From Deinococcales bacterium (lineage in GTDB: Bacteria; Deinococcota; Deinococci; Deinococcales; JAAFIG01): a stretch of DNA of 64,000 bases. The DNA is taken from NCBI GenBank assembly GCA_031414595.1, contig JANNVX010000014.1, forward strand, positions 32,001 through 96,000. The letters run 5' to 3'. Of this stretch, positions 1-27,162 are shown one piece after another (the stretch's first letter is position 1; every line of letters starts with the position of its first letter). The notes beneath the pieces are model-generated. The model worked only from the letters and a program-made list of their open reading frames with translations. It was not told where the DNA came from and did not search any database. A program made the position numbers and the translations under genes.

Positions 1-1
1 T

Positions 2-6786: not shown

Positions 6787-6949
6787 AGCCGAAGCATAGT
6801 GAGTATCTCTGTATTGAAAAGCACCATAATGCAATTTTTAGAAAAAAATCGAAGGGTGAGTGAAGAACATATTTTAGTTCACTCATAAGTCTCCAATCAT
6901 AAAAAGATCGTTGTAGTGAACTACACTTGAACAATATTTAGGAGTTTTT

Positions 6950-7414: not shown

Positions 7415-7419
7415 GAGCT

Positions 7420-7800: not shown

Positions 7801-7890
7801 AAGTTTAGAATAAAAATCTAAACCAGCTATACTAAAGATTAGTAAGTCATGAGAGGTAATTTTCAACAAGGTCTTGCGAATAGGAGTTTT

Positions 7891-8256
7891 ATGTTTACAG
7901 TTCGGTTTAATACTTTACTTCCAATCAGCTTTATCTCGCTTTGCGTTTTAACAATGCTTGGCTTGTTGGTGCGTGGTGTGGATTTCACTCGGTTGCTTGT
8001 GCCAGTGGTTCTTATTTTTGCAAGTTTCCGTGCTTTTTCCGCAGTTTACTTTTCGGTATATATGCAAACAGTTACCTTTAGGATTTCTTTCACGGCAGTT
8101 AAGCCGTTTGAGTTTCACAGTGCAGAAGTGCGTTCAGGGCGCTTGCATTTCTTGGATGCAACAGGTAAAACCCTCCTGAGTGTGGCAACTTGGCTATGTC
8201 GTACTGAGGATGTGAGTGCTTTGGTTAAGCAGTTTCCAGCATCCTCTAAGGAGTAG
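7891..8256 (+). CDS. Membrane protein (copy 2)
   Basis: ATG at 7891 after AGGAG; stop abuts the next gene. Confidence 0.7.
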   Translation: MFTVRFNTLLPISFISLCVLTMLGLLVRGVDFTRLLVPVVLIFASFRAFSAVYFSVYMQTVTFRISFTAVKPFEFHSAEVRSGRLHFLDATGKTLLSVATWLCRTEDVSALVKQFPASSKE

Positions 8257-8262
8257 GTCTTT

Positions 8263-9453: not shown

Positions 9454-9466
9454 GTTGGAGTGAATT

Positions 9467-11557: not shown

Positions 11558-11576
11558 GTGCAACCACGGAGGTTAT

Positions 11577-12821
11577 GTGAAGAAATTTTTTGGAATACTC
11601 TTAGTGATGGTCGCAGTTGCTGTAGGCATTGTCAGTCTTGCCGCAGCTTATCCAGCAAAACTCGAAAGTTTCCCTAGTGGATTTAGAATTCGAGCTGAAC
11701 AAAATATTCGTTTTTTTGTGGATTATCAGCAAAAGCAAATCATCGTTCCCGAAGCTCAATTGCCAGAGGGTACAAGTGTGCCATCAGATGCAAAGCTCGA
11801 GTTGCGAGCAGATGGTTTTATCCTAACCCTTTCCTATCCTTTTTCGGTAACGCTCAATCCATCAGGAAAATTGCTGACTATTCTCAAAGACGAACCAAAT
11901 GCTGTGCCTTCTGACGTTCGCATCCCCGTTTTTTACGAGATGCACAATGCCCAAGCATCCCAAGTCGCAGCTATTTTGACCCGTTTGTATCCTGGTTTGA
12001 AAGTTGAAGTTGATGAGCGTCAACGTTCAATCATAGTGCTACTCAGTCCTGCTGACCGTGAAGTAGTTGACCAAGTAATTAAACGCTTAGATGCACCACG
12101 ATTACAAGTCATGTTTGAAGCTGAAATTGTTGAAATAAACCGTAAAATATCACAGCAACTAGGCATAGATTACTCGAGACTTTTTAACCTTAACTTCAAA
12201 TTCAATGAAGGAACTCCACCCAATGGAGTGCTTGGCTTTGCGCCATTTCAACGCAGCCCTCTGTCACTTGAAGTGGGCATTAACCTGCTCAAATCAAACG
12301 GTGTGGCTAGAACACTCACTCGCCCTCGCATTGCCGTTTTGGATGGTCTCGAGGCGCGTATAAATGCTACTCAGACCCAGCCTATTCGCACAGTTGGCTC
12401 TGGTGGACAAGTTACTGTCTCCAATATCACCACAGGTATCAGTCTTCGTTTAGTTCCTAAAGTCGCTCCAGACAAGACCATTGAATCACAACTGAGTATT
12501 GCTGTTTCGTCACCTACAGGTATCTCGAGTGAAGGTTTACCAACCTACAGTACCCGTGAAGCGAGCACAACGGTACGAGTAAAAAATGCTGAGAGTATTG
12601 TTATCGGTGGATTGATCGAATCAAGGCGTAGTACCTCAAGTTCAGGAATTCCGGGGCTTATGGATATTCCAATTCTCGGAGAATTATTCAGAACAACCTT
12701 TACCGAGGAGTCTGACACCGATCTTTTGATTGTTGTTACCCCCTATGTAGTCAATAATGTCTTGCTCCCAGAAACTCCTCCTGCTCCAGAAACTCCTCAA
12801 GAACCACCAAGTCAACCATGA
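11577..12821 (+). CDS. Secretin (GspD/PilQ-type outer-membrane channel), short form
   Basis: N3-like domain, DAPRLQVMFEAEIVE, IVIGGLI, GIPGLMDIPILGELF and LLIVVTP; GTG start after GGAGG. Confidence 0.9.
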   Translation: MKKFFGILLVMVAVAVGIVSLAAAYPAKLESFPSGFRIRAEQNIRFFVDYQQKQIIVPEAQLPEGTSVPSDAKLELRADGFILTLSYPFSVTLNPSGKLLTILKDEPNAVPSDVRIPVFYEMHNAQASQVAAILTRLYPGLKVEVDERQRSIIVLLSPADREVVDQVIKRLDAPRLQVMFEAEIVEINRKISQQLGIDYSRLFNLNFKFNEGTPPNGVLGFAPFQRSPLSLEVGINLLKSNGVARTLTRPRIAVLDGLEARINATQTQPIRTVGSGGQVTVSNITTGISLRLVPKVAPDKTIESQLSIAVSSPTGISSEGLPTYSTREASTTVRVKNAESIVIGGLIESRRSTSSSGIPGLMDIPILGELFRTTFTEESDTDLLIVVTPYVVNNVLLPETPPAPETPQEPPSQP

Positions 12822-13249
12822 AAAGATTGAATTTGCTTTGGGTTTGTATTGTCTGTCTAATGGCGTGTGCGCCTGCGGTCAGTATTACATTTCAACCTCA
12901 AGTAAATAATCCTCTGACTCAAAAAATGATTGTGGCTTTTAAGGCTGTCTTTACTTATTATCAACTACAAGTTAAAGAACAGGCTTCATATCAATACGAC
13001 GGAACAGATGAACGAGCGTTTCTACTGGCAATTGATCAGTTTTACCTTGCAAATCCAGGTTTTTGTCCAATGAATGATGGATTCCATGTCAATGCAGATG
13101 GCACATTGCAAATGACCTTGGCAGCAAAAAAAGAACAGGTTATTGCTTTCATATATGACCTTCGGAATAAGCCCAAATTTGTTTATGTAATCGTCTCTGG
13201 AATTAGCCAAATTGAACCCCCTACTCGCCCTTGTCGTAACGGAAACTAA
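12818..13249 (+). CDS. Hypothetical lipoprotein
   Basis: Lipobox LMAC; ATGA overlap with the secretin stop. Confidence 0.7.
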   Translation: MKRLNLLWVCIVCLMACAPAVSITFQPQVNNPLTQKMIVAFKAVFTYYQLQVKEQASYQYDGTDERAFLLAIDQFYLANPGFCPMNDGFHVNADGTLQMTLAAKKEQVIAFIYDLRNKPKFVYVIVSGISQIEPPTRPCRNGN

Positions 13250-13257
13250 GGAATAAT

Positions 13258-13959
13258 ATGAAAAAATGGATTGTAATTACCGCTTTAATTGTAGGAACAG
13301 CTTTTGCCTTAGCTCAAAGTAATGGTTTAGCTTTATTCAACAAAGTTCGAGCTATACATGGGGATGCAGCTCTGACTGGACTCAAAACACTCCGAATTAC
13401 AAGTAATGTAGAAAATATTGACTCGGTAGGAAAGGTATCAATCCTTGCAACCCAAGTCGCAATTTACGATTTTGAAAATATGCGTTACAAATTGTTGGTC
13501 AGCACAGGAAATCAAGCTATAGACGGGTATCGAATAACTTCAAATGACTCAACTCAATGGACTCCGAAGGGCATCAAAGCAATCCCAGAAAGTCAAGCAA
13601 ACATCCTGCGGTATACATTTGTTCAAGGTATCCTACCTTTACGCCTCAATCCACAAACATGGACTTCAATCAATCAGACTTCTGGTACTATCGCAGGTTT
13701 GAACGGGGACATATTAACGTTGCAAAGTGCATCACAACGTACTTCATTACTTGTAAATAATGATGGTGAAATTCAGGCACAACGTTTTACCGTAGGCGAT
13801 CAATTTGAGACTGTCTTTGGGGAGTATCAAGTTATTTCAGGAATTCGCTTTGCAACTCGAGAACGATTACTGAGAAACGGGAATTTTGCCATTAGATTAT
13901 CGCATACCAAAATTAATGTTAATCCTTCACTCAATGCTACAGATTTTATTTTGCCGTAA
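13258..13959 (+). CDS. Hypothetical exported protein
   Basis: Signal peptide MKKWIVITALIVGTAFALA; RBS AAGGA. Confidence 0.7.
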   Translation: MKKWIVITALIVGTAFALAQSNGLALFNKVRAIHGDAALTGLKTLRITSNVENIDSVGKVSILATQVAIYDFENMRYKLLVSTGNQAIDGYRITSNDSTQWTPKGIKAIPESQANILRYTFVQGILPLRLNPQTWTSINQTSGTIAGLNGDILTLQSASQRTSLLVNNDGEIQAQRFTVGDQFETVFGEYQVISGIRFATRERLLRNGNFAIRLSHTKINVNPSLNATDFILP

Positions 13960-13988
13960 GAGTTTACTGCTCTAATTGACGGTCTGAC

Positions 13989-14110
13989 TCAGCTTTTCCG
14001 ACTGGTCATTCCAAACACAAAGGGTGGGGCTAGTTTACCCATTTCCTTAAGGTCTGCTTCGATTTCTTCGCGCTGATTGGTTTAGCGTTTAATGCCACTG
14101 GCTTGTAGCA
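13989..14110 (-). pseudogene. Remnant paralogous to the C-terminus of the 18299-18688 protein
   Basis: Translates LQASGIKR*TNQREEIEADLKEMGKLAPPFVFG versus LQPTGSTRQTNHRQQVKADFETMSKPVPAFVFG; internal TAA. Confidence 0.7.
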
Positions 14111-14590
14111 CCAATTTGGCATTTAAGTAAGACATAAATTCTCTTTAATCTAATCCCACCGCACAACTGCTTGACCCGTTCCAAATCACTTGTGAAATCA
14201 AGCAACCAATTGTCCATAATAGCTTTCTTCTTTGCCTAGCTTGAATTGGATGTGATGGATTTACGTTATTTATCATAGGTTAGTTGCGAGATTGAGTTCA
14301 CTACAGAGGAATTTATATTGCATTTATAGCCAAATTATATCTTTTTTATGATTTGGCTAATTTCAGTATATTCACTTGAAGCATAGTAAAGTTTACCGCA
14401 CAGTCACATTGAAATCAGCAATTTACTCATGTTCTTGAATCTAATTTCCTCCGCGCCGTTCCCTGTGTACTCACAAGGCAGCAGATTTGATTGGTTTTGG
14501 ACAAATTCTCAAAAGTGAGCGCACCGTAATATGACCCTCGAGATAATCATACATATCTCGAGTCCAAAAAACGCTTCCCGCCTTGCTTTA

Positions 14591-14911
14591 TCACTTCGTT
14601 GTACTCTTTTGACGTTTAGGTGGTAAATGATTTGAAGAAGGTTGTGCCAATAAATCAGATGGCTCAAGACCCATCTTTCGAGCTACTGTGAACAATCGAA
14701 GCAAAGTAGGATTAAACCGCCAGACCTGTTTACTCTCGAGTTGCTGATACCAATTCAGTCCAATGCCCAGTTGCTCGGCTGCCTTTTCTTGTGTCCAACC
14801 CAATTCCAATCTGCGTTGCCGAATGCGACTTTGAATCAATCGCAAGTATTCTGCATCTCGAGAATCTAATTCTCGTAGGAATTCTGTCAGTGCAGTTGAG
14901 CGTTGCGGCAC
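14591..14911 (-). CDS. XRE-family HTH transcriptional regulator
   Basis: IRQRRLELGWTQEKAAEQLG..YQQLE...NPTL. Confidence 0.85.
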   Translation of the reverse strand: MPQRSTALTEFLRELDSRDAEYLRLIQSRIRQRRLELGWTQEKAAEQLGIGLNWYQQLESKQVWRFNPTLLRLFTVARKMGLEPSDLLAQPSSNHLPPKRQKSTTK

Positions 14912-14945
14912 ATTGTTACAATTCGCTTTGCCATCCTCTTAGACA

Positions 14946-14963
14946 ACCCTGTTCAAACAGGGT
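14946..14963. promoter_or_regulatory. Inverted repeat ACCCTGTT-CA-AACAGGGT, candidate XRE operator
   Basis: Perfect 8-2-8 inverted repeat between divergent genes. Confidence 0.55.
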
Positions 14964-15045
14964 ATACTAACTTAACCATGACCAGCCAAAGCGTATGTAA
15001 CAGTAATTGGCTTGGGTCAATGAATCGCTAACAAGGTGAAGGGGT

Positions 15046-17043
15046 ATGTTCATGACAAAGCAGAAAAAATGGTTTCTGGCACTCGGTATTGGAATCTTGG
15101 CAATCGCAGTGGCGCAAAGTCCTTCATACACCTTTAGCATTGCTGGTCGTAATGTCAAGTTAAGCACCCTCGAACAAAAGAATCAAGTCTTTGTGAACAT
15201 CACCGAACTTGGCAAAGCAATGGGTTTTGGCGTGACCATTGACCAAAAGAAACGCACCGTTGTCCTCAGCAATACCTCGAGTGCCGTTGCCAGACTCACC
15301 CCACCTGTCAATCCCAATGCTCCAATCCAAGTCAATACCCTCACTGATACCCCAGATGCCAAACCAGGTGATGCCATTTGTGCCGATAGCCTAGGACAAT
15401 GCAGCTTAAGAGCCGCGATTCAAGAAGTGGTGGCACAAAAACGAACTCGAGATATTCGAGTACCCAATGGAACCTATACCCTCGAGCGAGGCGCGTTCAA
15501 TATCCCAGCCCAAAATGCTGCTTTCCAAGTCCGTATTCGCGGTGAGAACAAAGACAGCACCATCATCAATGCTGATGGACGAGACCGTGCTTTTGTGCTG
15601 AATGCAGGGCAGAAGTTGCTTCTCGAGAACTTGACCATTCGTAATGGGTCAACCACGGAGTCAGGTGGGGTGATCGCCATTCTTGGATATGGCAGTGGTA
15701 CAAACTCGGCTTTAACCCTCAAATCAACCAAATTCTTTGCCAACAAAGCCGGTGGGAGCGGCGCAGTGATCGCTGTTCTACAAGAGTATGGCAGTGTTTC
15801 AATTGACATCAGTCAATCTGAGTTTAGTGGTAACAGTGCCAGTAAAAATGGAGGGGCAATATCCGCAGTCATCGGTCAAGAGCCTACCAGCTTAACCATT
15901 GACAACTCAGTCTTTATTGAGAACTCGAGCCTTGGCAGTGGCGGAGCAATTCAAACCAATGGAAATCTGAAAATCACCAAATCGCAGTTTCTAAAAAATG
16001 AATCCAGTGGTGGTGACGGCGGGGCAATCTCGAGTCGCGGTTCAACCAACTTCAGTGATGTCACAATGGATGGCAATTCAGCTTCAAATGGTGGTGCGGT
16101 CTTTATTGGTAGAGATCAGAAAAACGTTTCATTTGAAAATACACGCTTTTTGAACAATACAGCCACCAGCAATGGTGGGGCGTTATTTATTGATATGCAA
16201 AGTGCCTTTAATATGACTAAATCAGCATTTACTGGCAATACCAGTAAAAACTCAGGTGGAGCAATCTTTGTTTCCAACAGCAATAACATCAGCATCGCTG
16301 AAACGAATATCTCCGCCAATCAAGCTCAGACCCAAAGTGGTGGTGGTATTTTTGTTGCCAGTACCAGTCAAATGGCTGTACGCAAGAGTCAGATTTTTGG
16401 CAATACTGCTACTGAAATGGGTGGTGGAATTTACATTCAACCTCAAGTATTCCAAGGATTATCACCGATTGTCACGATTGACAGCATAAGTCTGTACCAG
16501 AATCGAGCCAAGAACGGGGCGGGAATATACTCGGCTGGAAACCTAACCATTCAAAACAGTACCGTTTCACAAAACATAGCGTCCAATCAAGGTGGTGCAG
16601 TTTTCAGTGGAGAATCTCCTGAATCTCCACTAGCGCCAATTCTCGTTCTAACCAGTTCAACCTTTTACGATAACCAAGCAGGGGATACGAATGCTAACCA
16701 AGTTTACTCAAAGCAAAAATTCACAACTCGCTCGAGTCTGTTCTACAACAGCCAAGGCAAGAACTGCAATGCGCCAGAAGTGATTAGCCTTGGCTACAAC
16801 ATCGCTTCGGATGACAGTTGCAAATTGACTGGAAAAGCTGACCAGAACAATACTGACCCCAAACTCGGACTCCTAGCTGACAATGGTGGTGGTCTCTTGA
16901 CCCATCTGCCAGTGGTTGGTTCACCAGCCATTGATGTCGTGCCACTGAACACCTGTGAAGCTCGAGACAATCGTGGGGTGGTTCGGCCTCAAGGTGCAGC
17001 TTGTGATGTTGGGGCAGTTGAGCGCAGTCCAACGGATAAATAA
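15046..17043 (+). CDS. Secreted CSLREA-domain right-handed beta-helix (Pmp-like repeat) protein with choice-of-anchor Q-like C-terminus
   Basis: Signal peptide; CSLRAAIQE; many FxxNxA..GGAI repeats; DPKLGLLADNGG...GSPAID...RPQG..CDVGAVE. Confidence 0.85.
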   Translation: MFMTKQKKWFLALGIGILAIAVAQSPSYTFSIAGRNVKLSTLEQKNQVFVNITELGKAMGFGVTIDQKKRTVVLSNTSSAVARLTPPVNPNAPIQVNTLTDTPDAKPGDAICADSLGQCSLRAAIQEVVAQKRTRDIRVPNGTYTLERGAFNIPAQNAAFQVRIRGENKDSTIINADGRDRAFVLNAGQKLLLENLTIRNGSTTESGGVIAILGYGSGTNSALTLKSTKFFANKAGGSGAVIAVLQEYGSVSIDISQSEFSGNSASKNGGAISAVIGQEPTSLTIDNSVFIENSSLGSGGAIQTNGNLKITKSQFLKNESSGGDGGAISSRGSTNFSDVTMDGNSASNGGAVFIGRDQKNVSFENTRFLNNTATSNGGALFIDMQSAFNMTKSAFTGNTSKNSGGAIFVSNSNNISIAETNISANQAQTQSGGGIFVASTSQMAVRKSQIFGNTATEMGGGIYIQPQVFQGLSPIVTIDSISLYQNRAKNGAGIYSAGNLTIQNSTVSQNIASNQGGAVFSGESPESPLAPILVLTSSTFYDNQAGDTNANQVYSKQKFTTRSSLFYNSQGKNCNAPEVISLGYNIASDDSCKLTGKADQNNTDPKLGLLADNGGGLLTHLPVVGSPAIDVVPLNTCEARDNRGVVRPQGAACDVGAVERSPTDK

Positions 17044-17140
17044 CTTTACTTTTGCAGTTAAAAGGCGGAAAATGACTCGAGACTCCTCGAGATTTTGTCG
17101 CTACGGCAATGCGTTCTTAACACAACTGGATGGTTAAACC

Positions 17141-17584
17141 ATGCAAGCATTTATTCCCACAAGACCAGCACCCGCTCCACCAAGAGTATCACTGCTTGGA
17201 CTAAAAGCCACAACCATTTTAGAGGTTGGTGAAGCAGTCGAAAACGGTTTTGCCACAAGCCTTGTCAAGCGGTTTGCTTCGCATATCAATGCTTCGTTGC
17301 AAGATACACTCAAACTGCTGGATATAAGCAAACGCACTTTTCACCAATACCAACGCCATAAAAAGCCTCTGAGCCGAAGTGTAAGTATCAATGTGCTTCT
17401 CTTAGCCCAAATCACAGAGGCAGCCGAGCAGTATTTTGAAGATAAAACCAATGCCCATGCTTGGCTTGCCACACCTCGAACTACTTTTGGAGGCACGACA
17501 CCTCTTCAGTTCAGTCTGCTGCCCAATGGGGCTGAATACGTTAGAGCCGTGTTGAACAAACTCGAGCATGGGGTTGTTACGTGA
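17141..17584 (+). CDS. Xre/MbcA/ParS-type antitoxin (partner of RES toxins), apparently orphan
   Basis: ISKRTF HTH; A..WL.TP...FGG.TPL....GAEYV..VL.KLEHG. Confidence 0.8.
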   Translation: MQAFIPTRPAPAPPRVSLLGLKATTILEVGEAVENGFATSLVKRFASHINASLQDTLKLLDISKRTFHQYQRHKKPLSRSVSINVLLLAQITEAAEQYFEDKTNAHAWLATPRTTFGGTTPLQFSLLPNGAEYVRAVLNKLEHGVVT

Positions 17585-17724
17585 AATTTGTTTCTGCAAC
17601 GCGTTTTCAAATAGAAGTAAGCTCAACAATGGCAACTCGGGAAGCATGGATGTCCGAGCAACCCTTTTGGAGTGTCACAGTATAGCCCTAACGAAAAGTT
17701 GGGCTTTACCTGTTGAATCATTGC

Positions 17725-18117
17725 CTAAGCGTCTTCCTCATCTCTAAGCTCTCGAGTGAATATGTTGGATTCGCAATCAATTGGATGAAGACCTATGAAT
17801 TCTGCATAATCAATGTCGTTCTTTTCAAGGTTTTGGTGTTCGTTTTTATGGACTCCATTTAATCCTTCATCCAACATCCGAGCCAAATCCTCGACTTTCC
17901 CGCCCCGCTCCTTGAGAAGACGACAAAATTCTTGCCTGCCGATTGATTTTACCAAATCATCCCTATCAAAGAGCATCGCTGCGTATAATCTTGGTTCTGG
18001 CATAAAGGTTTTGTCGTGACTTGAGAATGCAATCAGGTCATAGTTAAGGTCACTTCTTTCACGAATCGCCACAAGACGCTTCCCGTACAGGTAAAAATGT
18101 GTGTTTTTCGGTAACAT
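17725..18117 (-). CDS. Hypothetical protein (start uncertain)
   Basis: Open frame; GAGG upstream of ATG 18117. Confidence 0.5.
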   Translation of the reverse strand: MLPKNTHFYLYGKRLVAIRERSDLNYDLIAFSSHDKTFMPEPRLYAAMLFDRDDLVKSIGRQEFCRLLKERGGKVEDLARMLDEGLNGVHKNEHQNLEKNDIDYAEFIGLHPIDCESNIFTRELRDEEDA

Positions 18118-18298
18118 TGTTGCCATCCTCATGCACTTGTAGAAAAGAACCTTGCAGCACCACCACAACCAAATCCCAACGACCACCAATGCTCAAAAAT
18201 CACGATTATGACTACTCAAGTAGGAAACGATACTATTGAGGTCATGCTGTGATGATTGATTTCAAACCAAAAGTAAATCATGAAACCACAAATAATCA

Positions 18299-18688
18299 CT
18301 ACCTACCACGGTATCCAAAAACAAAAGCTGGAACTGGCTTGCTCATCGTCTCAAAGTCGGCTTTGACCTGTTGCCTATGATTGGTCTGACGGGTGCTACC
18401 AGTGGGTTGCAATTGGTCTATCCAAAGTTCCAAAGCATCTTCTGGTGAGTCTTCGTAAACCTCGAGTATTTTAGGTTCGGTCGGTTTGATGCTATCCCAA
18501 TGGATGTACCGATGTAAGCGTTGTAAATGCTGTTCTGGACTTTGACTCGAGGCAATCAGTCCAAGCATGTGTGATTCCTCGAGCATGATTGAACCTGCTT
18601 CTTCGCTTCTTAGAAGTTGCAGTAATTTACTGGTGTAGTCACGCCAGACTGTGTTGACTTCACGTTTTTGACGGTTTCTTTGGCTCAT
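18299..18688 (-). CDS. Hypothetical protein
   Basis: ATG 18688 with GGAG RBS; paralogous remnant at 13989. Confidence 0.7.
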   Translation of the reverse strand: MSQRNRQKREVNTVWRDYTSKLLQLLRSEEAGSIMLEESHMLGLIASSQSPEQHLQRLHRYIHWDSIKPTEPKILEVYEDSPEDALELWIDQLQPTGSTRQTNHRQQVKADFETMSKPVPAFVFGYRGR

Positions 18689-18741
18689 ATGATTTACTCC
18701 TTTTACACATCTTTTGCTTGTAGTTGCTTTTATTTGAGAAA

Positions 18742-19086
18742 TTATCCAAACTTCCTTTGAACCAAACGCCAGCACAAAGTGACCATCAGACCAGCGAATA
18801 GAATCACTGCCCAACTTGGTAATTGCAGAATCACCGCCAAGCTGTATGAGTAAACCCCAGCACAAAAGGTTAAAGACCAGACCAATGGAATTTTGGCAAA
18901 TAATTGTAGAAACGCATCAAGATTATGCCCATAGTGCTTCTCGAGCAAGAATAGGATGATGGCAAAGACCATCAGGCTCGAGACAAGACAAAGCCCAATT
19001 GAGGCATTGACAGTCACGAGTAATCTTGTTGTCAAACCTCCAGCCAGAACTGCAAAAACAAGCAACTCGAGGTGAACCCTTTTCAT
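18742..19086 (-). CDS. Hypothetical membrane protein (about 4 TM segments)
   Basis: Hydrophobic segments; 4-nt overlap with upstream gene. Confidence 0.65.
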   Translation of the reverse strand: MKRVHLELLVFAVLAGGLTTRLLVTVNASIGLCLVSSLMVFAIILFLLEKHYGHNLDAFLQLFAKIPLVWSLTFCAGVYSYSLAVILQLPSWAVILFAGLMVTLCWRLVQRKFG

Positions 19087-19436
19087 GGTGTCTCCAAGTT
19101 CGCCTTGCCAAAAAACCGAGTATTCATTTGTTCTCGTAACCGATGATTCTCAAGGGTGAGTTTACCAAGTAAGCGCTCGAGTAGGATTTCTTGGGCTTTT
19201 GATCGCTCGAGTTGTTTTTGTAGATTCAAATTCTCGGTCTCGAGTAAACCAGATTGTTGTTCTGAACTAATAAAAGCATCATTACCAAAGCGTTCATATA
19301 AAGCTCGCCAAGAAAATAAGGTTGAAGCTAGGATTTTATGTTCTCGAGCCACAGCACTAGGTCGTTTGTGTTGTTCAATGACTTCCTTGACCATTCGCAA
19401 CTTAAATTCGGGGGTGTATAACTTTCGGTTTTTCAT
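19083..19436 (-). CDS. IS3-type OrfA-like HTH/leucine-zipper protein without OrfB
   Basis: RKLYTPEFKLRMVKE...VAREHKI..STLFSWR plus coiled coil ending LGKLTLEN. Confidence 0.75.
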   Translation of the reverse strand: MKNRKLYTPEFKLRMVKEVIEQHKRPSAVAREHKILASTLFSWRALYERFGNDAFISSEQQSGLLETENLNLQKQLERSKAQEILLERLLGKLTLENHRLREQMNTRFFGKANLETP

Positions 19437-19903
19437 GGTCTAGTCCTTACATTAAATGTAATCGTGTGAATCACGGTATCTTTTGTATCTCGAGGAAGTT
19501 CAGTAAGCTCTAATTGATGCTCGTTATTTAGGGTAAAAGCTATGGTGATTCGGCTTTTGGTTAAAGTCCATCCATCACTATTTACAGCACTTGATTCAAG
19601 AACTTGTAAAAAAGTGGTTAGAGCTTTCTCAAAGGTCGTCATAAATTGGGGGATTGGTGTTCCAAAATCATTAACAGTAAAACTTTGGCTATCCACTGAA
19701 AATTCAATGTGTACAAGTTCTTCCTTGGTGGTTACGCTGGTTGCAAGGTTTAGTTCGCTTGCTTTTCGGGTTTTGCTTGCTTTATCGAGATAGAACGCCC
19801 ATGTCACTTGGGTGATCTGAATTCTTGTGCCTAAAAGGTTATAGGTGTGCGCTATATTGAAGGTGCTTTGTACCGCACCAAGATAATCAATGGGCTGGTT
19901 CAT
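19433..19903 (-). CDS. Hypothetical protein
   Basis: Coupled by 4-nt overlaps on both sides. Confidence 0.65.
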   Translation of the reverse strand: MNQPIDYLGAVQSTFNIAHTYNLLGTRIQITQVTWAFYLDKASKTRKASELNLATSVTTKEELVHIEFSVDSQSFTVNDFGTPIPQFMTTFEKALTTFLQVLESSAVNSDGWTLTKSRITIAFTLNNEHQLELTELPRDTKDTVIHTITFNVRTRP

Positions 19904-20619
19904 TCTCGTGTCCCTAAGCCTAACTCGAGACCATCATCCAAAAGATGGTTTTCATGCTCGTTAGTTAAATTTTCCTCGAGAATAACTTTGCGTTTCATGG
20001 GTGGAATCCATTTCTTCCAATGCTCTGGGATTTCTAATCGCATTGGCTTGAGATTTTGAGCAATTAAGAAACCATGCTCGAGAACCCCAGTCATGTGTAG
20101 ATACCGAGCATCTTCGACCAAATTCAGTAAATCGAGGGTGGTTTTAGCACTGACCACAAATGGTTCTATTTTTTTGTTGTCTGGTGGGTAAACTCGCAGC
20201 AATACTAATTTCTCAGCTCGGTCTAAACGGAGGACTTTGCCAGCCGCACTCCAGAAGGTATCAGCACCATTCAAATCAACGGCATTCTCGAGGGGCATGA
20301 CTCGAGCCAAGGTGAGGTTGGCTAAGCGTTGGTCTTTGAAGGTCTTGCCGTACAACGTGGCTCTCCAAGTACCAGAGAGTTGGATTGAAGACTGTTCAGG
20401 GTGGGTGTTGCGCCACCTCGAGAAAACCCTTGGGTGAACTCGAGCGATGTAAGTACCATTTTTTGGATTGCCAAGTTGAATGGTGACTCGAGTGTTTTGC
20501 TGGTCATCTTGGATGGTGGCATTGGCTTGGATGAAGAAATGGTGGTTATAGTCGGTGTGAATACCTTTTGGCATTGGCTGTGGTGTGGTTACAAGAGTTT
20601 CAAAAACGTCATTTGACAT
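19900..20619 (-). CDS. Hypothetical protein, paralog of 20652-21248
   Basis: Shared WSA.G...D....LV..RVYP.....PF..SA motif; RBS GGAG. Confidence 0.75.
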   Translation of the reverse strand: MSNDVFETLVTTPQPMPKGIHTDYNHHFFIQANATIQDDQQNTRVTIQLGNPKNGTYIARVHPRVFSRWRNTHPEQSSIQLSGTWRATLYGKTFKDQRLANLTLARVMPLENAVDLNGADTFWSAAGKVLRLDRAEKLVLLRVYPPDNKKIEPFVVSAKTTLDLLNLVEDARYLHMTGVLEHGFLIAQNLKPMRLEIPEHWKKWIPPMKRKVILEENLTNEHENHLLDDGLELGLGTRE

Positions 20620-20651
20620 GCTATCTCCTATTCACGGGTTTCTTATCGTCT

Positions 20652-21248
20652 TTAGTTGGCTTTCCAGTTGCGCCAACGATCAGGAATTTCTAAATCTTGA
20701 TTGGTTAATACTTCTGCAACAAGCTTTTTGCCACTTAAGTTCCCTATCAAATGGACAAACTCATTTTTTCTTGGCAACTCTTGTTCTACTTTCAAACTGG
20801 CTGAAATCAAAAATGGCGTGGCTCGAGCTTGCTCAGGGTAAACCCGAATCGTGACCAATCGGTGTATTGGGTCACTTTTGGTGATTTGTCCAATAGCACT
20901 CCATCGCGGCTGGTGGGAATCTTCTCGTTCTAACTCGAGGGGTTCAATACGATGTAGGTGAAGTGGTTCAAACAGCACACTATCGTTCAAAGTGCGGAAA
21001 TGAAGCGTACATAACCACCAACGATGACTTGCTGGGTTGAGCCTTAACACATCTGCACTGGCTTTAACCCGAAGCATGGTGCTATCGGAGAGTTGGATGT
21101 CCATATTGTTACCGCTCCCTGAATCGTAAATACAAGCCGCCACTCGCATAAAAGCATGGCATCCATCAGGAATAGGAAAATCAAAAGTGAGTTTTCGTGG
21201 GGTAGTGGTCAATGGTCTGCCTCGAGCTTGGATTTTGTGACTGGTCAT
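20652..21248 (-). CDS. Hypothetical protein, paralog of 19900-20619
   Basis: Same motif; ATG 21248 after AGAGGTGG. Confidence 0.75.
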   Translation of the reverse strand: MTSHKIQARGRPLTTTPRKLTFDFPIPDGCHAFMRVAACIYDSGSGNNMDIQLSDSTMLRVKASADVLRLNPASHRWWLCTLHFRTLNDSVLFEPLHLHRIEPLELEREDSHQPRWSAIGQITKSDPIHRLVTIRVYPEQARATPFLISASLKVEQELPRKNEFVHLIGNLSGKKLVAEVLTNQDLEIPDRWRNWKAN

Positions 21249-21390
21249 AAGAAATGCCACCTCTGTACACATCGGATCGTGTTTGTTACAAAAGGTGGTG
21301 GTGTTAAACGAGATTGATTGTCTTGAACTGCCAACATGAGTTGTAAGCTCAAGTGCTGACCCTAATTGCTTGGGGCATTTACATTATAAC

Positions 21391-21406
21391 ACCGTATATA
21401 TACGGT
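21391..21406. promoter_or_regulatory. Perfect 16-bp palindrome ACCGTATATATACGGT, candidate XRE operator
   Basis: Lies between the divergent operon and the XRE gene. Confidence 0.6.
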
Positions 21407-21443
21407 TCTGCTAGTCAAAGTCAACCTGTAGCCTTCGCAAACG

Positions 21444-21671
21444 ATGCCTCGCTTTGCGGTAGACCCAGAGATAATACGTGTTCGCATTCGTCAATTACGA
21501 CTCGAACAGGGTTTAACCCAAGATGAAGTAGCAGCCCGAAGTGGAATCAACGAAAAGCACTATCAAGACCTCGAGACGGGAAGGAAAGCCTTTAATCCTA
21601 CTCTCGAGACCCTCAATGCTTTTGCTTTGACCTTTGAAGTGGAACTGGCTGTCCTTCTAAAATCGGAGTAA
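21444..21671 (+). CDS. XRE-family HTH regulator upstream of the tniQ-cas operon
   Basis: IRQLRLEQGLTQDEVA.RSGI...YQDLE.G...NPTL. Confidence 0.88.
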   Translation: MPRFAVDPEIIRVRIRQLRLEQGLTQDEVAARSGINEKHYQDLETGRKAFNPTLETLNAFALTFEVELAVLLKSE

Positions 21672-21838
21672 AACCGTAGATTCCTGACACGTTATTCGGA
21701 AATTTAACGTGAAATACACGGGAGTTTGAAAATCAGAGTTGGTCATTGTAGACCAAACAAAAACAGTATGCTAAGTTATCCGTCAGTGACAGACTATTAT
21801 AAATGTCAACGAAACCTGAATCTTGAGGTAATTAGGAT

Positions 21839-22798
21839 GTGTTTCATATGATTGAAACTGCCAAAAACCCACACTGGGCAATCCACCCTCAAATCCAAAA
21901 TGGTGAGTTGTTTGAATCTTGGATTGTGCGGTTGAGTGCCGAAAATGGCTTTCGCCTGCGCGAAGTGATACAGCAATTAGAACTCAAAAATGTCTTTTGT
22001 TCTAAAAACAATGTTGAGATCAAAGCCGTAAGAAAATTGTCGGATGCAACTGGGATACTTCAATATCGAATCCTCGAATCCCATCTTGGGTGGCTTCAAA
22101 ATCACTCTGATCTTGCCTATGCAAAAACATTTACCCTTTGGGGGCGTAGCCCATCGGACACGATACAGCATTTTAAGTTTTGCCCAGACTGTTTTGCTAA
22201 TCAAGACAAGCCACACATACTGCTTGACTGGGCATTTGAAATCACTCAGTTCTGCACGGTACATCAACGACCTTTACTCGAGCGTTGTCCAAAATGCCGC
22301 GAGCCACTTCAGTTTAGTTTGCTTTTCAACAAAACAATACAACCCGAAATCTGCTCTAATTGCAGCACAAAAATGAAAATCCATGCTCGGAAACACAGCA
22401 TTGATTTCAAATTTGGTCTCGAGCTACAAAGACAAATCTTGAGCCTCCGAAAACATGACCAAGTATCACCAAAACAATCACGAATTATCCCAGCAAAAAC
22501 GTTTTTATCAATTGTTGAGCGGATATTTTATCGCTTTACCAATTTACCCAACCAGCAAACCTTCTCTAAATTGACTGATCTCTCAGTTATGTTGCTGGAT
22601 GATCGTTTTTCGCAAGCGTACCGAAGAATAAACGCCCTGACCATTTGTGGCTGGCTTTTAGCCGACCCAATAGTACGAATTATTACTCTGCGCCAATTCA
22701 CGCAAAAGTATGTTGAATACTCGACGGCTATTCAAATTATTTCTGTTCTGAATTATGCACAAGCGACATTGCAACCACGTAATGGAACTTACCAATGA
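21839..22798 (+). CDS. tniQ: TniQ family target-selector protein
   Basis: N-terminal HP....GELFESWIVRLS..NG; zinc-binding FCPDC, FCTVH...LLERCPKC and CSNC; start at 21839 or 21848. Confidence 0.9.
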   Translation: MFHMIETAKNPHWAIHPQIQNGELFESWIVRLSAENGFRLREVIQQLELKNVFCSKNNVEIKAVRKLSDATGILQYRILESHLGWLQNHSDLAYAKTFTLWGRSPSDTIQHFKFCPDCFANQDKPHILLDWAFEITQFCTVHQRPLLERCPKCREPLQFSLLFNKTIQPEICSNCSTKMKIHARKHSIDFKFGLELQRQILSLRKHDQVSPKQSRIIPAKTFLSIVERIFYRFTNLPNQQTFSKLTDLSVMLLDDRFSQAYRRINALTICGWLLADPIVRIITLRQFTQKYVEYSTAIQIISVLNYAQATLQPRNGTYQ

Positions 22799-23529
22799 GC
22801 TTATTTGCACTCGAGGTTTGGGGCGATTACGCCTGTTTCACACGTCCTGAAACAAAAGTTGAAAGACTTAGTTACCCTGTGATGACTCCAAAAATTGCTC
22901 GAGCAATTTTTGGAGCGATCTACACCCAGTTTTCTGGGGGTGAAACACCTCACACAACTTTTTTCTGGCAAGTCAGGCGAATCGAAATCCTCAATCCAAT
23001 TGTGTTTATTTCGTTCTCACACAATGAAGTCAAAGGGAGAGCAAGCACTTACAACATTTTGCGCTCAGTTCATCAGCCCGACGCACTTCAACCGCTCATG
23101 GCAGATGGCAATGATGATTCCAGCAAAGAGACTGGGCGCACCCAACGCCAATCAATGATTTTGCGCGAGGTGCGTTATCGGATATTCGCTGAACCAGTGC
23201 TGTACAATCCAAACCAAAGCAATCTGAAGCAAATCACCCACGAATTTGCTCGACGTGCAGCCAAAGGCAAGTGTTTCCATCAGCCTTTTTTGGGATGCCG
23301 TGAATACATAGCATTTTTCCAGCCAGTTCCGCCCACATTTGGCGTTGGCGCACCGATTTTTGAAGATATTGGTTGGATGATCTACGATACGTTTGATCTA
23401 TCACAGCCAAGCTCAATCACCATTACACCAAGCATTAGTATCTTCAGGGCGACGATTCAAAACGGTGTTCTCGAGATACCGCCGTATGATAGCAACGAGG
23501 TACGCAAACTAGGACTGGGAGTGATTTGA
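22795..23529 (+). CDS. cas5c: Type I-C Cas5 (Cas5d)
   Basis: LEVWGDYACFTRPE.KVER.SYPVMTP; RRA.KG.CFHQPFLGCRE; F.A....GVL. Confidence 0.97.
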   Translation: MSLFALEVWGDYACFTRPETKVERLSYPVMTPKIARAIFGAIYTQFSGGETPHTTFFWQVRRIEILNPIVFISFSHNEVKGRASTYNILRSVHQPDALQPLMADGNDDSSKETGRTQRQSMILREVRYRIFAEPVLYNPNQSNLKQITHEFARRAAKGKCFHQPFLGCREYIAFFQPVPPTFGVGAPIFEDIGWMIYDTFDLSQPSSITITPSISIFRATIQNGVLEIPPYDSNEVRKLGLGVI

Positions 23530-25343
23530 TGCTCGAGGCTCTGATCGAATATGCTCACCGAAAACAATTGGTTCTCGAGCCTGGTTTTGCTGGCAGGCGT
23601 ATTCATTGGTTAATAAATCTTGACTCTAAAGGACAGGTTCAATCCGTTTCTTTTGCAGATGAATCCAAGCGACGAGCGAAGTTGTTTCCATGCTGTCCAG
23701 ACCTGCAACAGCCCCAACTGATCAGGCTGCCACATGTACTTAAACAGCTTGGAATACTATCAACACGAGCAGCCCACTTTTTAATGGATTCATGTTGTCG
23801 TGTGGTGCTTTATCCAGATAACGATCAGTTGGAACAACATAAGACTTTTCTAAACCTAATCCAACTAGCAAGCCAAGAAGTTAGGATATTACGACCAGTT
23901 GCAAAAATGCTTTCAAAGCAAAAGGAAATTGGTCGAGTACATCAAGCCCTCATTCAATTGAAAGCCACAAAAACCGACAAAGTATCGTTTTCGGTGGATG
24001 GAGTGGTCATACTTGAGGATACAACGTGGCATGATTGGTGGCGAAGATTTTATATAACCACAAGCTCAAAGCAAAATTCAGATCGTATGATCAGTCTGGT
24101 TTCAGGAGAAGTTATTTCGCCTGCCAGAACACATCCAGCGCTTAAATCCTTGGTCGAAAAAAAAGTAACTTTTGGAGCGGCAGTAGTGGCTGTGCATAAA
24201 ACTGCCTTTACCTCATATGGGCTAAAACAAGCCGAACACGCCGCCATGTCAGGAGCATCTGCCGCTGCCTATCATGCAGCTCTGGAAGATTTATTGAGAC
24301 AAACTAGGATGGTTCATGGTACGAAAGCGGTGTATTGGTACAACCAAGAAATTCCACTACAATCCGACCCACTGGCGCTGATGTTGCGCGATGAACGCAT
24401 AGATAACATCAACTACCGAAAACAGCTTGAGGATATTCTTTCACAAGCTCGAAAAGATGATTCTCGAGATGTTGCTTGCCATATTGCTGTGTTGCGTGAA
24501 AATGAAAATCGGGTCAGGATTTCATTGTACAAAACGCTGCGATTGAGTGAAGTGGCGGCTGGACTTATTAAATGGCTCGAGGATACTTCAATTGATGGTT
24601 TGGCAGGTACTGGTTTCGTAGTTGATCTACCCAGCGAATTTGCTGGTATGTTTCGTCAACGAGTTGGGGGAAAAAGCGATAAGGCACTTGACTTTCAACC
24701 ACTACTGATTGTGTTGTACCAGCAGATGCTCAACCCCACTCTACCCATTGCGATGGCTCTGGTTGATTATTCACTTAAATCGGTCATTACCAGCTTTGTA
24801 AAAGGCAAATTTCAGGCAGCATTTGCAACCAAGGCAGATTTACCATTGCGACAAAATTTGGTGATTTACATGGGTATTTTGAAAGCATTTTGCCGTCACT
24901 CAGGTGATCGAGACCTATTGCAACAACTGAATCCTAATCATCCTAATTCACACTATCAAACAGGTCGGCTCACTGCGATGCTCGAGCGTATTGATGGGTT
25001 GAATAATCCTCCACATGTTGAACTCAAAAACCAAAGGTTGTTTTTGCAAATTATGACGACACCGAACAATATCCTGCAAGAAAAAATGGCTTCCAGTCAA
25101 CGAAAGCTCAAGCGACTTGAAAGAACTCGACGATGGTTCAGCCTATACTTACAAAAAGAAATGAATACGATTTGGGAGAATCTTGATGCTAAGGTTCGGA
25201 GTAATAGCTCAGTAAAACGCCAATGCTTATTCCTATTGGGTTACTTTCAACAAACCATTTCTCAATTGATTGAACCTGTGCAAAACGATGATTTTTACAA
25301 TTTGGAGTCGAGAACCTTTAAGGAGCAACATGAAACCGATTGA
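23526..25343 (+). CDS. cas8c: Type I-C large subunit Cas8c/Csd1
   Basis: ML.AL..YA N-terminus; AFTSYG..Q...A; C-terminal Y..GRL.A.LE and Q..FLLGYFQQ; lies between cas5 and cas7. Confidence 0.9.
   Translation: MMLEALIEYAHRKQLVLEPGFAGRRIHWLINLDSKGQVQSVSFADESKRRAKLFPCCPDLQQPQLIRLPHVLKQLGILSTRAAHFLMDSCCRVVLYPDNDQLEQHKTFLNLIQLASQEVRILRPVAKMLSKQKEIGRVHQALIQLKATKTDKVSFSVDGVVILEDTTWHDWWRRFYITTSSKQNSDRMISLVSGEVISPARTHPALKSLVEKKVTFGAAVVAVHKTAFTSYGLKQAEHAAMSGASAAAYHAALEDLLRQTRMVHGTKAVYWYNQEIPLQSDPLALMLRDERIDNINYRKQLEDILSQARKDDSRDVACHIAVLRENENRVRISLYKTLRLSEVAAGLIKWLEDTSIDGLAGTGFVVDLPSEFAGMFRQRVGGKSDKALDFQPLLIVLYQQMLNPTLPIAMALVDYSLKSVITSFVKGKFQAAFATKADLPLRQNLVIYMGILKAFCRHSGDRDLLQQLNPNHPNSHYQTGRLTAMLERIDGLNNPPHVELKNQRLFLQIMTTPNNILQEKMASSQRKLKRLERTRRWFSLYLQKEMNTIWENLDAKVRSNSSVKRQCLFLLGYFQQTISQLIEPVQNDDFYNLESRTFKEQHETD
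24918..25343 (+). CDS. cas11: Putative internally translated Cas11 (141 aa, in frame within cas8c)
   Basis: AGGTGA at 24902-24907, then an in-frame TTG at 24918 just before the Y..GRL motif. Confidence 0.55.
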   Translation: MQQLNPNHPNSHYQTGRLTAMLERIDGLNNPPHVELKNQRLFLQIMTTPNNILQEKMASSQRKLKRLERTRRWFSLYLQKEMNTIWENLDAKVRSNSSVKRQCLFLLGYFQQTISQLIEPVQNDDFYNLESRTFKEQHETD

Positions 25344-26295
25344 AAATCGCTACGAATTTCTACTCATTTTTGATTGCGAAAATGGCAATCCCAATGGTGA
25401 TCCCGACGCAGAAAACCTTCCAAGAATAGACTCCCAAGACGGTCATGGATTGGTCTCTCCAGAATCAATCAAACGAAAGATTCGTGACCGTATTGCCCTG
25501 AATGGTATAGAAATCTTTATCCAACACCAAACCAATCTCAATCGTGCGATTTTTGCGGCGCGTGAACAGAGTAATACCTTAAAAGACAAATCCACCAAGA
25601 TAACATTACAAAACGCCGCTGCAATTATGTGTAAACGATTTTATGATGTTCGGACTTTCGGTGGGGTAATGACTACAGGTGTCAATTCAGGTCAATTGAC
25701 TGGACCTGTGCAGATTACATTAGCTCGCAGTGTTGACCCAGTTCATATCATGGATTGGGGAATTACTAGAGTGGCTGTTGCCGAAACTGTCCAAGGAGCA
25801 AAAACCCTGGCTGACTACGAACAATGGGAATCCGAACAAAATGCTTCAGATTTAAGAACTATGGGACGGAAAAGCCTGATTCCATATGGATTATTCGTAG
25901 CCAAAGGCTGCATCAGTGCGTTTGATGCGGAAAGAACAGGGTTTTCAGAAGCTGACCTCGAATTGCTCTGCGAAAGCATGTTAGACATGTTTGAACACAG
26001 TCGCAGTGCCAGTCGTGGTTTGATGACCACAAGGCGCTTGGTAATTTTTAAGCATATAGGATCATCCAAAGACCCCAAAGTGCGCCTCAAACAAGCTAAA
26101 CTAGGGCGTATTCCAGCACAAAATTTGCTCGAGTTAGGCAGAATTGTTCGCATTTCTCGCGTCAATAAAGATGCTTTTCCTCGAGCCTATCACGATTACG
26201 ACGTGGTTGTGGATACCAGTGCATTACCAGAAACCATTGAAGTGCTGGATTTAGATTTGTGGGATGAAGAAAAGTTTCGCTCGGCTTGGGTTTAA
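25330..26295 (+). CDS. cas7c: Type I-C Cas7 (Csd2)
   Basis: IENRYEF...FD..NGNPNGDPDA.N.PRID; FYDVRTFG.V; GPVQ; TMGRK..PYGL; ATG 25330 after AGGAG. Confidence 0.97.
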   Translation: MKPIENRYEFLLIFDCENGNPNGDPDAENLPRIDSQDGHGLVSPESIKRKIRDRIALNGIEIFIQHQTNLNRAIFAAREQSNTLKDKSTKITLQNAAAIMCKRFYDVRTFGGVMTTGVNSGQLTGPVQITLARSVDPVHIMDWGITRVAVAETVQGAKTLADYEQWESEQNASDLRTMGRKSLIPYGLFVAKGCISAFDAERTGFSEADLELLCESMLDMFEHSRSASRGLMTTRRLVIFKHIGSSKDPKVRLKQAKLGRIPAQNLLELGRIVRISRVNKDAFPRAYHDYDVVVDTSALPETIEVLDLDLWDEEKFRSAWV

Positions 26296-26467
26296 GCGAA
26301 CCCTTAGTGGCACTAAAATCACCTATAGTTCGCGGAAACCAAATTTCGTCTATGACGTGATTCTTCTGTGCGATATTGAGTAGTGATCAAAAAATTAATG
26401 TTGAATTATTGGGTTCGCAGAATGTATTCCTTTTTGACTTTGTACTATGAAAAGATATACATTTACA
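26296..26467 (+). promoter_or_regulatory. CRISPR leader with predicted promoter TTGACT(26434)-18 bp-TACATT(26458)
   Basis: GCGAACCC...GTTCGC...GGGTTCGC leader-type motifs; AT-rich; ends at the first repeat. Confidence 0.7.
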
Positions 26468-26645
26468 GTCTCAATGGCATCTAGCCGTCGAGACGCTTGA
26501 AACCAAACCCGACGAAAGGATGCACATTACGATAATCCGTCTCATGGGCATCTAGCCGTCGAGACACTTGAAACATTGCCATCTAAAGTCCAATCACATA
26601 CATTGGCATGTCTCTATAGCTTTTAGACATTGCGATGCTCGAGAT
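26468..26645 (+). CRISPR. Minimal CRISPR array: 36-nt repeats at 26468, 26539 and degenerate 26610; two 35-nt spacers
   Basis: Repeat GTCTCAATGGCATCTAGCCGTCGAGACGCTTGAAAC (hairpin, GAAAC end); third copy is 24/36 identical; period 71. Confidence 0.92.
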
Positions 26646-26717
26646 TTGGAACTTTACAAAAAAAGTCTTTGCAGTAGCGACAATAAACCGTTAGCACCAC
26701 TACATTCTCTTAAAACC

Positions 26718-26746
26718 TTGAATAAACATAGGACATGAGCTAGGAT
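26718..26746 (+). promoter_or_regulatory. Predicted promoter for the delocalised repeat-spacer: TTGAAT-17 bp-TAGGAT
   Basis: Canonical spacing; predicted start falls at the 5' end of repeat 26751. Confidence 0.6.
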
Positions 26747-26750
26747 TACA

Positions 26751-26808
26751 GCCTCAACGGTACTTAGCCATCGAGACGCTTGAAACTAACCAATTGACCT
26801 ATATGCCC
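26751..26808 (+). CRISPR. Delocalised atypical repeat (26751-26786) plus tRNA-targeting homing spacer (26787-26808)
   Basis: Repeat GCCTCAACGGTACTTAGCCATCGAGACGCTTGAAAC; spacer TAACCAATTGACCTATATGCCC matches the minus strand of 27086-27107 at 18/22. Confidence 0.88.
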
Positions 26809-26890
26809 GAATTTATTTTTTCCAAAGCCTCTTGTTCCAGATATGCGGAGGTCAAAGCCAAAAGGTTTGCTTGAAAGGAGTATTGGGATC

Positions 26891-27038
26891 ACTGACACGG
26901 TAAACGATAAGAAATGATATAGAATTTAACTCGAGTTCGTTAAACACAATGTTTATTTAGGAAAGTTCAATCAGTGCCACGGTAAACGATATTGACATTC
27001 ATAAAAATAATTACTGACAAAGTAAACGATAATTCACA
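26891..27038 (-). repeat. Tn7-like transposon end with three TnsB-type binding repeats
   Basis: ACTGACACGGTAAACGAT (26891), AGTGCCACGGTAAACGAT (26973), ACTGACAAAGTAAACGAT (27013), then 8 bp AATTCACA, i.e. a 5'-TGT terminus. Confidence 0.85.
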
Positions 27039-27043
27039 CCTAT

Positions 27044-27072
27044 TTGCCAAATGTGCATTTTACGGTTAATCT
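27044..27072 (+). promoter_or_regulatory. tRNA promoter TTGCCA-17 bp-TAATCT
   Basis: Canonical spacing, 13 bp upstream of the tRNA. Confidence 0.7.
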
Positions 27073-27085
27073 AGGGGTCGTGCGA

Positions 27086-27162
27086 GGGTCTATAGCTCAA
27101 TCGGTTAGAGCGGAGGTCTCATAAACCTTAGGTTCGGGGTTCAAGTCCCCGTGGACCCACCA
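27086..27162 (+). tRNA. tRNA with CAT anticodon, most likely tRNA-Ile2 (lysidine); elongator Met not excluded
   Basis: Full cloverleaf: GGGTCTA/TGGACCC acceptor, GCTC/GAGC D-stem, GAGGT-CTCATAA-ACCTT, CGGGG-TTCAAGT-CCCCG, ACCA end. Confidence 0.95.

Follow-up and report, generated by a model that had tools for sequence, protein, structure and literature searches.

A Tn7-like transposon from Deinococcales probably represents a new, independent lineage of type I-C CRISPR-associated transposons

In the papers examined, type I-C CRISPR-associated transposons (CASTs) are listed only as computational predictions with no guide or target (10.1101/2021.08.16.456562, PMC11300857, PMC12669027). A 2024 review lists five CAST types, none of them I-C, and gives I-F3 as the only group outside cyanobacteria (PMC11406308); neither "I-C" nor "Deinococ" occurs in the available text of PMC10293859. 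Here we describe a mobile element that lies partly within a 64,000-nt stretch of a Deinococcales genome (assembly GCA_031414595.1, contig JANNVX010000014.1; the stretch, hereafter the window, is C14:32001-96000 of host genome G000). It is very probably a CRISPR-associated Tn7-like transposon whose only target selector is a nuclease-less type I-C Cascade. The literature searched, which took in few subscription papers and whose supplements and figures might hold a case, yielded no CAST from Deinococcota and no I-C CAST for which a homing spacer or an experiment was described. A first-pass annotation of this DNA had supposed that I-C/Tn7 associations were at most computational proposals, and so it appears from these sources: the I-C CAST label is already published as a computational class.

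Both ends of the element and its target-site duplication (TSD) were located (Table 1). TGTGAATT opens the element and AATTCACA closes it, with CCTAT flanking each end. The cas-side end terminates in ACA at 27038, and the 18-nt end motif occurs four times in the genome, every time within the two ends of this element. An empty site was found in G004, which is the closest relative when judged by the flanking NUDIX gene and where both flanks (91–96% identical to those of the element) are joined over a single CCTAT; synteny was kept at only this 1 of 15 NUDIX loci, the remaining 14 being uninformative. The element has a GC content of 0.433, against flanking values of 0.470 and 0.474. TGT...ACA ends with repeated TnsB sites, a 5-bp TSD with an empty site, and TnsB and TnsC accompanied by TnsA and TniQ together mark the element as Tn7-like. 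The first-pass annotation had called a Tn7-type end and a tRNA after the operon, and both are there; extending the contig leftwards, as it had proposed, revealed tnsAB, tnsC and a matching second end with its TSD 22 kb left of the window.

When three TnsAB proteins were combined into a profile, it weakly matched solved I-F3 and other TnsB/TnsAB chains. Residues D71/E85/K87 of TnsA and D434/D532/E567-568 of TnsB, presumably catalytic by their motifs, are invariant in 3/3 aligned TnsAB.

At the other end of the element stands a four-gene operon. tniQ and cas5c overlap by ATGA at 22795-22798, confirming the translational coupling noted earlier, and the cas5c/cas8c and cas8c/cas7c pairs overlap too; the most probable cas7c start codon is the ATG at 25330, which has AGGAG upstream. 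The product of the Xre-type helix-turn-helix (HTH) gene presumably has a regulatory role. Hidden Markov model searches returned the TniQ, Cas5d, Csd1 and Cas7 identities that had been predicted, and Cas5c is similar over its full length to solved Cas5c chains. The operon had been described as free of flanking cas3, cas1, cas2 and cas4, and tblastn with the host's own cas3, cas4, cas1, cas2 and cas6-like genes indeed gave no match on contig C14, these queries matching only contigs C18, C82 and C101. The element contains effector genes without interference or adaptation genes, the CAST arrangement, and cas5c-cas8c-cas7c without cas6, the type I-C arrangement. It has a single TniQ-family gene: a PF06527 search of contig C14 gave one match and no TnsD (a second TniQ-family homing protein) in the element, and the other two TniQ-family genes of the genome are on contigs C26 and C101. 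A complex prediction for TniQ and Cas8c scored 0.00 and counts neither way.

Downstream, the predicted two-spacer array followed by a lone repeat-spacer was found as described, with a degenerate third repeat. The homing spacer after the lone repeat targets the minus strand of the 5' part of the host tRNA, with mismatches at positions 6, 12, 18 and 19, and the distance from the protospacer-adjacent motif (PAM) to the TSD is 64 nt; the first-pass annotation had not noticed this match. With positions 6 and 12 ignored, the only other match to its first 17 nt in the 4.49-Mb genome is the tRNA; neither array spacer has such a partner there when every sixth base is ignored. The short match and the absent second repeat may keep the host's cas3-bearing I-C system (on C18) from cutting the chromosome. 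A promoter scan around the array gave chance level, 3 against 2.5 expected, and the 12 runs listed included no RNA run.

Table 1. Coordinates of the element and its features (window positions unless a contig is named)
Feature	Position	Strand	Remarks
Whole element	G000:C14:10220-59038		48,819 bp; both ends and TSD located
Element portion inside window	1..27038		
tnsAB-side end	C14:10220		TGT, directly after CCTAT; left of window
tnsA-tnsB fusion	C14:10351/10399-12864		837-aa open reading frame (ORF) from 10351; TnsA_N, rve and Mu_C each below cut-off
tnsC	C14:12854-13681		275 aa; TniB family, 109 bits; Walker A and B present
Xre-type HTH regulator	21444..21671	+	PF01381, E 3e-11; directly upstream of tniQ
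tniQ	21839..22798	+	319 aa, short; PF06527, 60 bits (cut-off 27)
cas5c	22795..23529	+	TIGR01876, 114 bits (cut-off 85); Cas5d, 75 bits
cas8c	23526..25343	+	Csd1, 196 bits (Pfam)
cas7c	25330..26295	+	TIGR02589, 277 bits (cut-off 182); Cas7, 270 bits (Pfam)
Mini-array	26468..26645	+	repeat hairpin -14.9 kcal/mol
Repeats	26468-26503, 26539-26574, 26610-26645		third degenerate
Spacers	26504-26538, 26575-26609		35 nt each
Lone atypical repeat	26751..26786	+	differs from repeat 1 at 6 positions; hairpin weaker; 3' handle retained
Homing spacer	26787..26808	+	18/22 nt match tRNA; no repeat downstream
cas-side transposon end	26891..27038	-	TGT terminus; three 18-nt TnsB-type sites
TnsB-type sites, cas-side end	27013-27030, 26973-26990, 26891-26908		
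TSD CCTAT	27039..27043	+	twin at C14:10215-10219
Protospacer and CTC PAM	27086..27110	-	protospacer 27107 down to 27086; PAM 27110-27108
Host tRNA, CAT anticodon	27086-27162	+	ARAGORN: Met (elongator Met or Ile2); outside element, intact
Mini-element	G000:C17:43424-44542		1,119 bp; deleted derivative

We searched for related elements in 19 family genomes and 364 phylum genomes. The best three Cas8c matches (35–39%) came from G013, G005 and G001, the only genomes that a scan for relatives returned; all three are Deinococcota/Deinococcales metagenome-assembled genomes, in accord with the Deinococcota host that had been guessed. In each, tniQ replaces cas3, and a short array and a Tn7-type end are present; each genome also has a TnsAB homologue (46–62%) and tnsC. 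Linkage of homologous operons to cas3 had been named as a ground for giving up the CAST interpretation, and these three nearest operons are linked to tniQ and lack cas3. A further copy, the mini-element of the host genome, lies upstream of a clpP-like gene between TGG-type ends and a CAGTT TSD, and retains only a truncated tnsA, a single repeat-spacer-repeat unit and a lone repeat. Translated in frame, the spacer of its array gives SGGKDS, which we take to be the PP-loop motif of PAPS-reductase-like genes in mobile elements.

The five elements share one insertion geometry. Each is bounded by a 5-bp TSD (CCTAT, TTGGT, ACAAA, CGATG and CAGTT), and in each the lone-repeat spacer matches the cas-side flank and points towards the end, at PAM-to-TSD distances of 64, 60, 61, 62 and 65 nt. 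Three targets are tRNAs (the CAT tRNA, a tRNA-Arg and a tRNA-Leu); the other two are a permease-like gene, hit at its 3' end, and a clpP-like gene, hit at its start, both presumptively named from their motifs. Over 20 counted positions the five homing spacers match at 18, 17, 16, 16 and 15, scores that were reached by 0, 0, 2, 0 and 3 of 3000 shuffles. The four full elements have PAMs of CTC, TTC, CTC and TTC (at spacings of 64, 61, 60 and 62 nt), two of each kind, as expected for the 5'-TTC of type I-C; the D. vulgaris I-C PAM is TTC (10.1101/2022.06.15.496202). Mismatches fall at position 6 in all five spacers, at 18 in four and at 12 in three, positions at which the base is flipped out of type I R-loops (PMC9881144). 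Since three of the targets are tRNAs, these every-sixth mismatches are not explained by codon wobble. What the sequence itself shows is the element boundaries, a TSD, an empty site, the gene content of a CAST, and a PAM-bearing self-targeting guide that matches the attachment site at a fixed distance and in a fixed orientation. The earlier suggestion of an RNA-guided I-C CAST is supported by both ends, the TSD, the transposase, the empty site and a guide-target geometry seen in 5/5 elements.

The position of the lone unit varies. It follows the array in G000, G001 and the mini-element but is inverted in the other two: in G013 it adjoins the end, and in G005 it lies upstream of tniQ. In G005 the expected target was inferred from the spacing, and the unit was then found by a repeat search. 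The best initial match there had been an internal tRNA copy, not a spacer, and was rejected; the real unit was outside the region first scanned. That copy of the target tRNA-Arg, 88% identical, lies between array and end (G005:C136; L024:349-448), and the G005 element is inserted at the CCA end of the host tRNA. G013 has a second cas-side end copy directly outside its tnsAB end (G013:C421; L077 ~2490-2600), and its TSD overlaps the last three bases of that copy: a tandem insertion at one attachment site, 3 bp apart. In G001, cas5c and cas8c share one frame of ~950 aa, a possible Cas5-Cas8c fusion (G001:C161; L025:836-3688); a Cas8-Cas5 fusion in a cas3-less I-C system, perhaps comparable, is mentioned in PMC10910872.

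Four of the 12 listed runs were examined, among which X1 may be the source. Close variants of the element with a different leader-end spacer were found in X5 and X6 of one study and X9 of another; in X6 the flank differs, yet an identical end again lies 45 nt from the tRNA. These variants fit spacer gain in trans and site choice by tRNA rather than by flank. A TniQ profile gave 12 clusters at E < 1e-47, then a gap. No relatives were found in viral contigs by TniQ and Cas7 scans, or in JGI metagenome contigs by TniQ-alignment and TnsAB-alignment scans.

We propose that transposition would run as follows. Cas5c, for which crRNA (CRISPR RNA) processing is predicted here and is described in type I-C (PMC9881144), would cut the repeat hairpins to yield crRNAs, so that no Cas6 would be needed. 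Cas5c, Cas7c and Cas8c with the lone repeat-spacer would bind a target with a YTC PAM, forming a short R-loop of ~22 nt. TniQ would bridge this complex to the AAA+ ATPase TnsC, which would recruit the fused TnsAB for excision and cut-and-paste insertion. The element would enter 60–65 nt beyond the PAM, its cas-side end facing the target, with a 5-bp duplication and no damage to the target gene. Array spacers, which host Cas1/2/4 would renew in trans, could provide a second route, into mobile DNA and plasmids, and a change of homing site would take replacement of the guide, not of a protein.

Several observations weigh against this proposal. Cas8c scored 152 bits with TIGR01863, below the NCBIfam equivalog cut-off of 218.65, though it passed with Pfam. 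Array-spacer targets numbered 0 among exact matches in viral contigs and none was found in plasmids; spacer 2 had no target in the 364 phylum genomes. The mini-element spacer mismatches its target at positions 1-4, next to an aligned PAM of TGT instead of YTC, and the G001 homing spacer mismatches at positions 3-6. The two ends of the G001, G005 and G013 elements are on different contigs, and only the agreement of TSDs and ends links them. In G005, tnsC occupies two frames and an insertion sequence lies in the leader; therefore some copies are decaying. A match of spacer 1 in G028 was set aside as chance, with a GCG PAM and its 3' part unmatched.

The missing array targets, the degenerate third repeat and the decaying relatives could also mean that the lineage is RNA-guided and the present copy immobile, or without a plasmid-targeting route. 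This would be compatible with the mechanism proposed here, and we consider it unlikely: the six core ORFs are all open, there is no flaw in the ends or the TSD, the element is missing from the nearest relative, and other hosts have close variants that carry new spacers. Far less probable is a protein-guided Tn7-like element with Cascade as a passenger, where TniQ alone would pick the site and the self-matching spacer would serve gene repression or be a by-product. Sister elements in Deinococcota do combine the same TnsAB-TnsC with a long TniQ and no cas gene found, cas3-less Cascades with lone repeats can repress (10.1101/2023.03.03.530964), and the targets at the tRNA 5' end and the clpP-like start are near promoters. 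However, one TniQ family (29–33% identity) is found at five unrelated sites, each matched by the spacer of its own element with a 60–65 nt offset in one orientation; two of the targets are gene 3' ends (the tRNA-Leu and the permease-like gene); and the short TniQ is translationally coupled to cas5c, 41 kb from tnsC. An assembly chimera or chance neighbourhood of cas genes and transposon, conceivable in a 120-contig assembly, is refuted by TSDs that match across 49 kb, by the empty site, and by the recurrence of the operon-array-end order in 3 other genomes and in contigs from independent studies.

Both halves of the element bear on its origin. Its TnsC, which blastp did not match to the Tn7-type TnsC of the host (531 aa), is a member of a TniB-type family of Deinococcota; TnsC homologues (E < 1e-15) occur in 14/364 phylum genomes. 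In 7 elements from another Deinococcota family, tnsAB-tnsC is followed by a long TniQ (435–506 aa in the six scanned). tblastn found no I-C genes in 11 sister loci (flanks 10–60 kb), nor did Pfam find a Cas family in the 65 ORFs scanned of 100 listed there. This cas-less TnsAB-fusion family (L123-L133; G026, G058, G115, G033, G028, G038, G133) has one to three long TniQ; a Z1/AIPR restriction-like cluster is among its cargo, and one element has a pPIWI-RE gene in its neighbourhood. The three CAST TnsAB form a clade (99/98) among these sisters in a 10-row tree rooted only for drawing. In the Cas7 tree (33 rows), the four CAST proteins form a clade (100/100) with long branches inside the Meiothermus-type I-C group; in the Cas8 tree (43 rows, a quick version), the CAST proteins, joined by two further Cas8c proteins (P0002 and P0003), are sister to that group. 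Long-branch joins are possible in both trees, as the tool warned. cas3 adjoins cas5 in 29/30 non-CAST I-C loci, the other ending before cas3 could show, and tniQ is in 0/30.

The Cascade and transposase clades each stand beside Deinococcota relatives that lack the other half. From these trees we infer that a Deinococcota TnsAB transposon captured a local I-C Cascade, a short TniQ taking the place of cas3; an independent origin of this I-C CAST lineage is likely.

Cas11c supports the R-loop in D. vulgaris I-C (PMC7684278). After removal of two distant loci, all 26 comparison cas8c genes have an AAAGG-type ribosome-binding site (RBS) and an ATG ~130–145 codons from the end, and this ATG sits at the aligned column or two codons on in 26/26. 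At that column the four CAST cas8c genes read CTA (this element), ATC, ATT and ATC; weak TTG/GTG alternatives lie near the eroded start in three of the four. We hypothesize that the CAST lineage may have lost Cas11c. A broader proposal, which we advance tentatively and give somewhat less than an even chance, joins independent recruitment into a six-gene class 1 CAST, a Cas11c no longer made and a new docking mode for TniQ. The Cascade would then act without Cas3 and without need of Cas6, a shortened R-loop would set insertion 60–65 nt from the PAM, and, with Cas6 and Cas11c absent, the TniQ interface would therefore be unlike those of I-F3 (Cas6) and I-B2 (Cas11).

Cargo genes occupy C14:13863-38127 and window 6328-21272. 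They encode an RNase H; a double-GTPase system with GAP1, GASH and EAD1-SIR2 genes; a MalT-like TPR ATPase; a very large Rhs-Hint-WHH nuclease with a SMI1 immunity gene; a subtilase; a secretin; an Xre/MbcA antitoxin; and, at 19900-21272, two paralogous ORFs of no family. A 300-nt direct repeat of 92% identity (window 6946-8256) represents the duplication of a gene for a small membrane protein, situated after the Rhs immunity gene.

Other loci of the host genome were noted. Contig C101 (G000:C101:1-5153, L007) has a long CRISPR array of > 20 repeats with a similar GTCTC...TTGAAAC frame, then a cas6-like gene, tnsC (330 aa) and tniQ (410 aa); tnsB is absent from the vicinity. Beside an IS630-like pair on contig C26 lies a classical tnsA-tnsB-tnsC-tnsD operon with a TnsD of 637 aa (G000:C26:2133-8566, L008), and 27 tRNA genes form one array at G000:C56:144-4674. 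Tandem and inverted TTATCCACA-type boxes at window 56138-56281 are probably the replication origin.

Together these data point to a new I-C CAST lineage, probably of independent origin, which homes by a delocalised crRNA much as V-K does and lacks Cas6 and possibly Cas11c. Ends, PAM, guide layout, spacing and orientation, all drawn from five natural insertions, make I-C-guided transposition directly testable, and six genes with a natural TnsAB fusion and no Cas6 make a compact candidate for programmable DNA insertion. With likely relatives of both parents in the same phylum, the steps of co-option can be read: replacement of cas3 by tniQ, faster evolution, erosion of the Cas11c start and relocation of the guide.

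Among known systems, the nearest relatives of the Cascade are the Meiothermus-type I-C CRISPR-Cas systems (Cas7 52–56%, Cas8c ~30%; P0004, the Meiothermus ruber Cas8c, is among the Cas8c matches). They have the same gene order, but with cas3 where this element has tniQ, short branches and a conserved RBS-ATG for Cas11c. The published I-C CASTs (Rybarski et al., 10.1101/2021.08.16.456562; listed in PMC12669027) likewise combine Cas5c, Cas7c and Cas8c with TnsABC and TniQ and lack cas3 and cas1/2. In their available description, however, TniQ adjoins TnsABC, the core is close to Tn7, and array, self-targeting spacer and attachment site were not found. Here tniQ is the first gene of the cas operon, and 41 kb separate it from a fused tnsAB and a TniB-type tnsC of 275 aa; the family has an array, a homing spacer, a TSD and five attachment sites. 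Judged by the described layout, the element is not a member of the published group.

The V-K CASTs (ShCAST group) resemble it in their single small TniQ, in a short TnsC (a weak match to ShTnsC), and in a truncated separate repeat-spacer aimed at varied tRNAs, the protospacer of which lies downstream of the cas gene and is oppositely oriented (10.1101/2021.02.06.429022). Unlike V-K, this element has a class 1 Cascade in place of Cas12k, a TnsA domain, a non-cyanobacterial host, a lone repeat that keeps its full hairpin, and a match of ~22 nt with every-sixth mismatches. The I-F3 elements (Tn6677/VchCAST, PseCAST) share tniQ-cas far from tnsABC, one TniQ, an atypical homing repeat and an Xre gene nearby (PMC11406308), and I-F3 proteins are the best PDB matches of TnsC and TnsAB, though weak (E 1e-7). 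The present element differs in its I-C Cas proteins, in a homing unit that stands apart from the array and in the family may be inverted or precede tniQ, and in having no Cas6, the contact of TniQ in I-F3 (PMC11406308). With I-B2 and I-D (PmcCAST, McCAST/CyCAST) it shares a natural TnsA-TnsB fusion and tRNA attachment sites (PMC11406308), but those systems home by a second protein, TnsD (PMC10293859, PMC11406308), none of which was found in this element. McCAST inserts 75 +/- 6 bp from the PAM (PMC9881144), against 60–65 in this family, and where the I-B2 TniQ contacts Cas11, Cas7 and Cas6 (PMC11406308), here Cas6 is absent and the Cas11c start is eroded.

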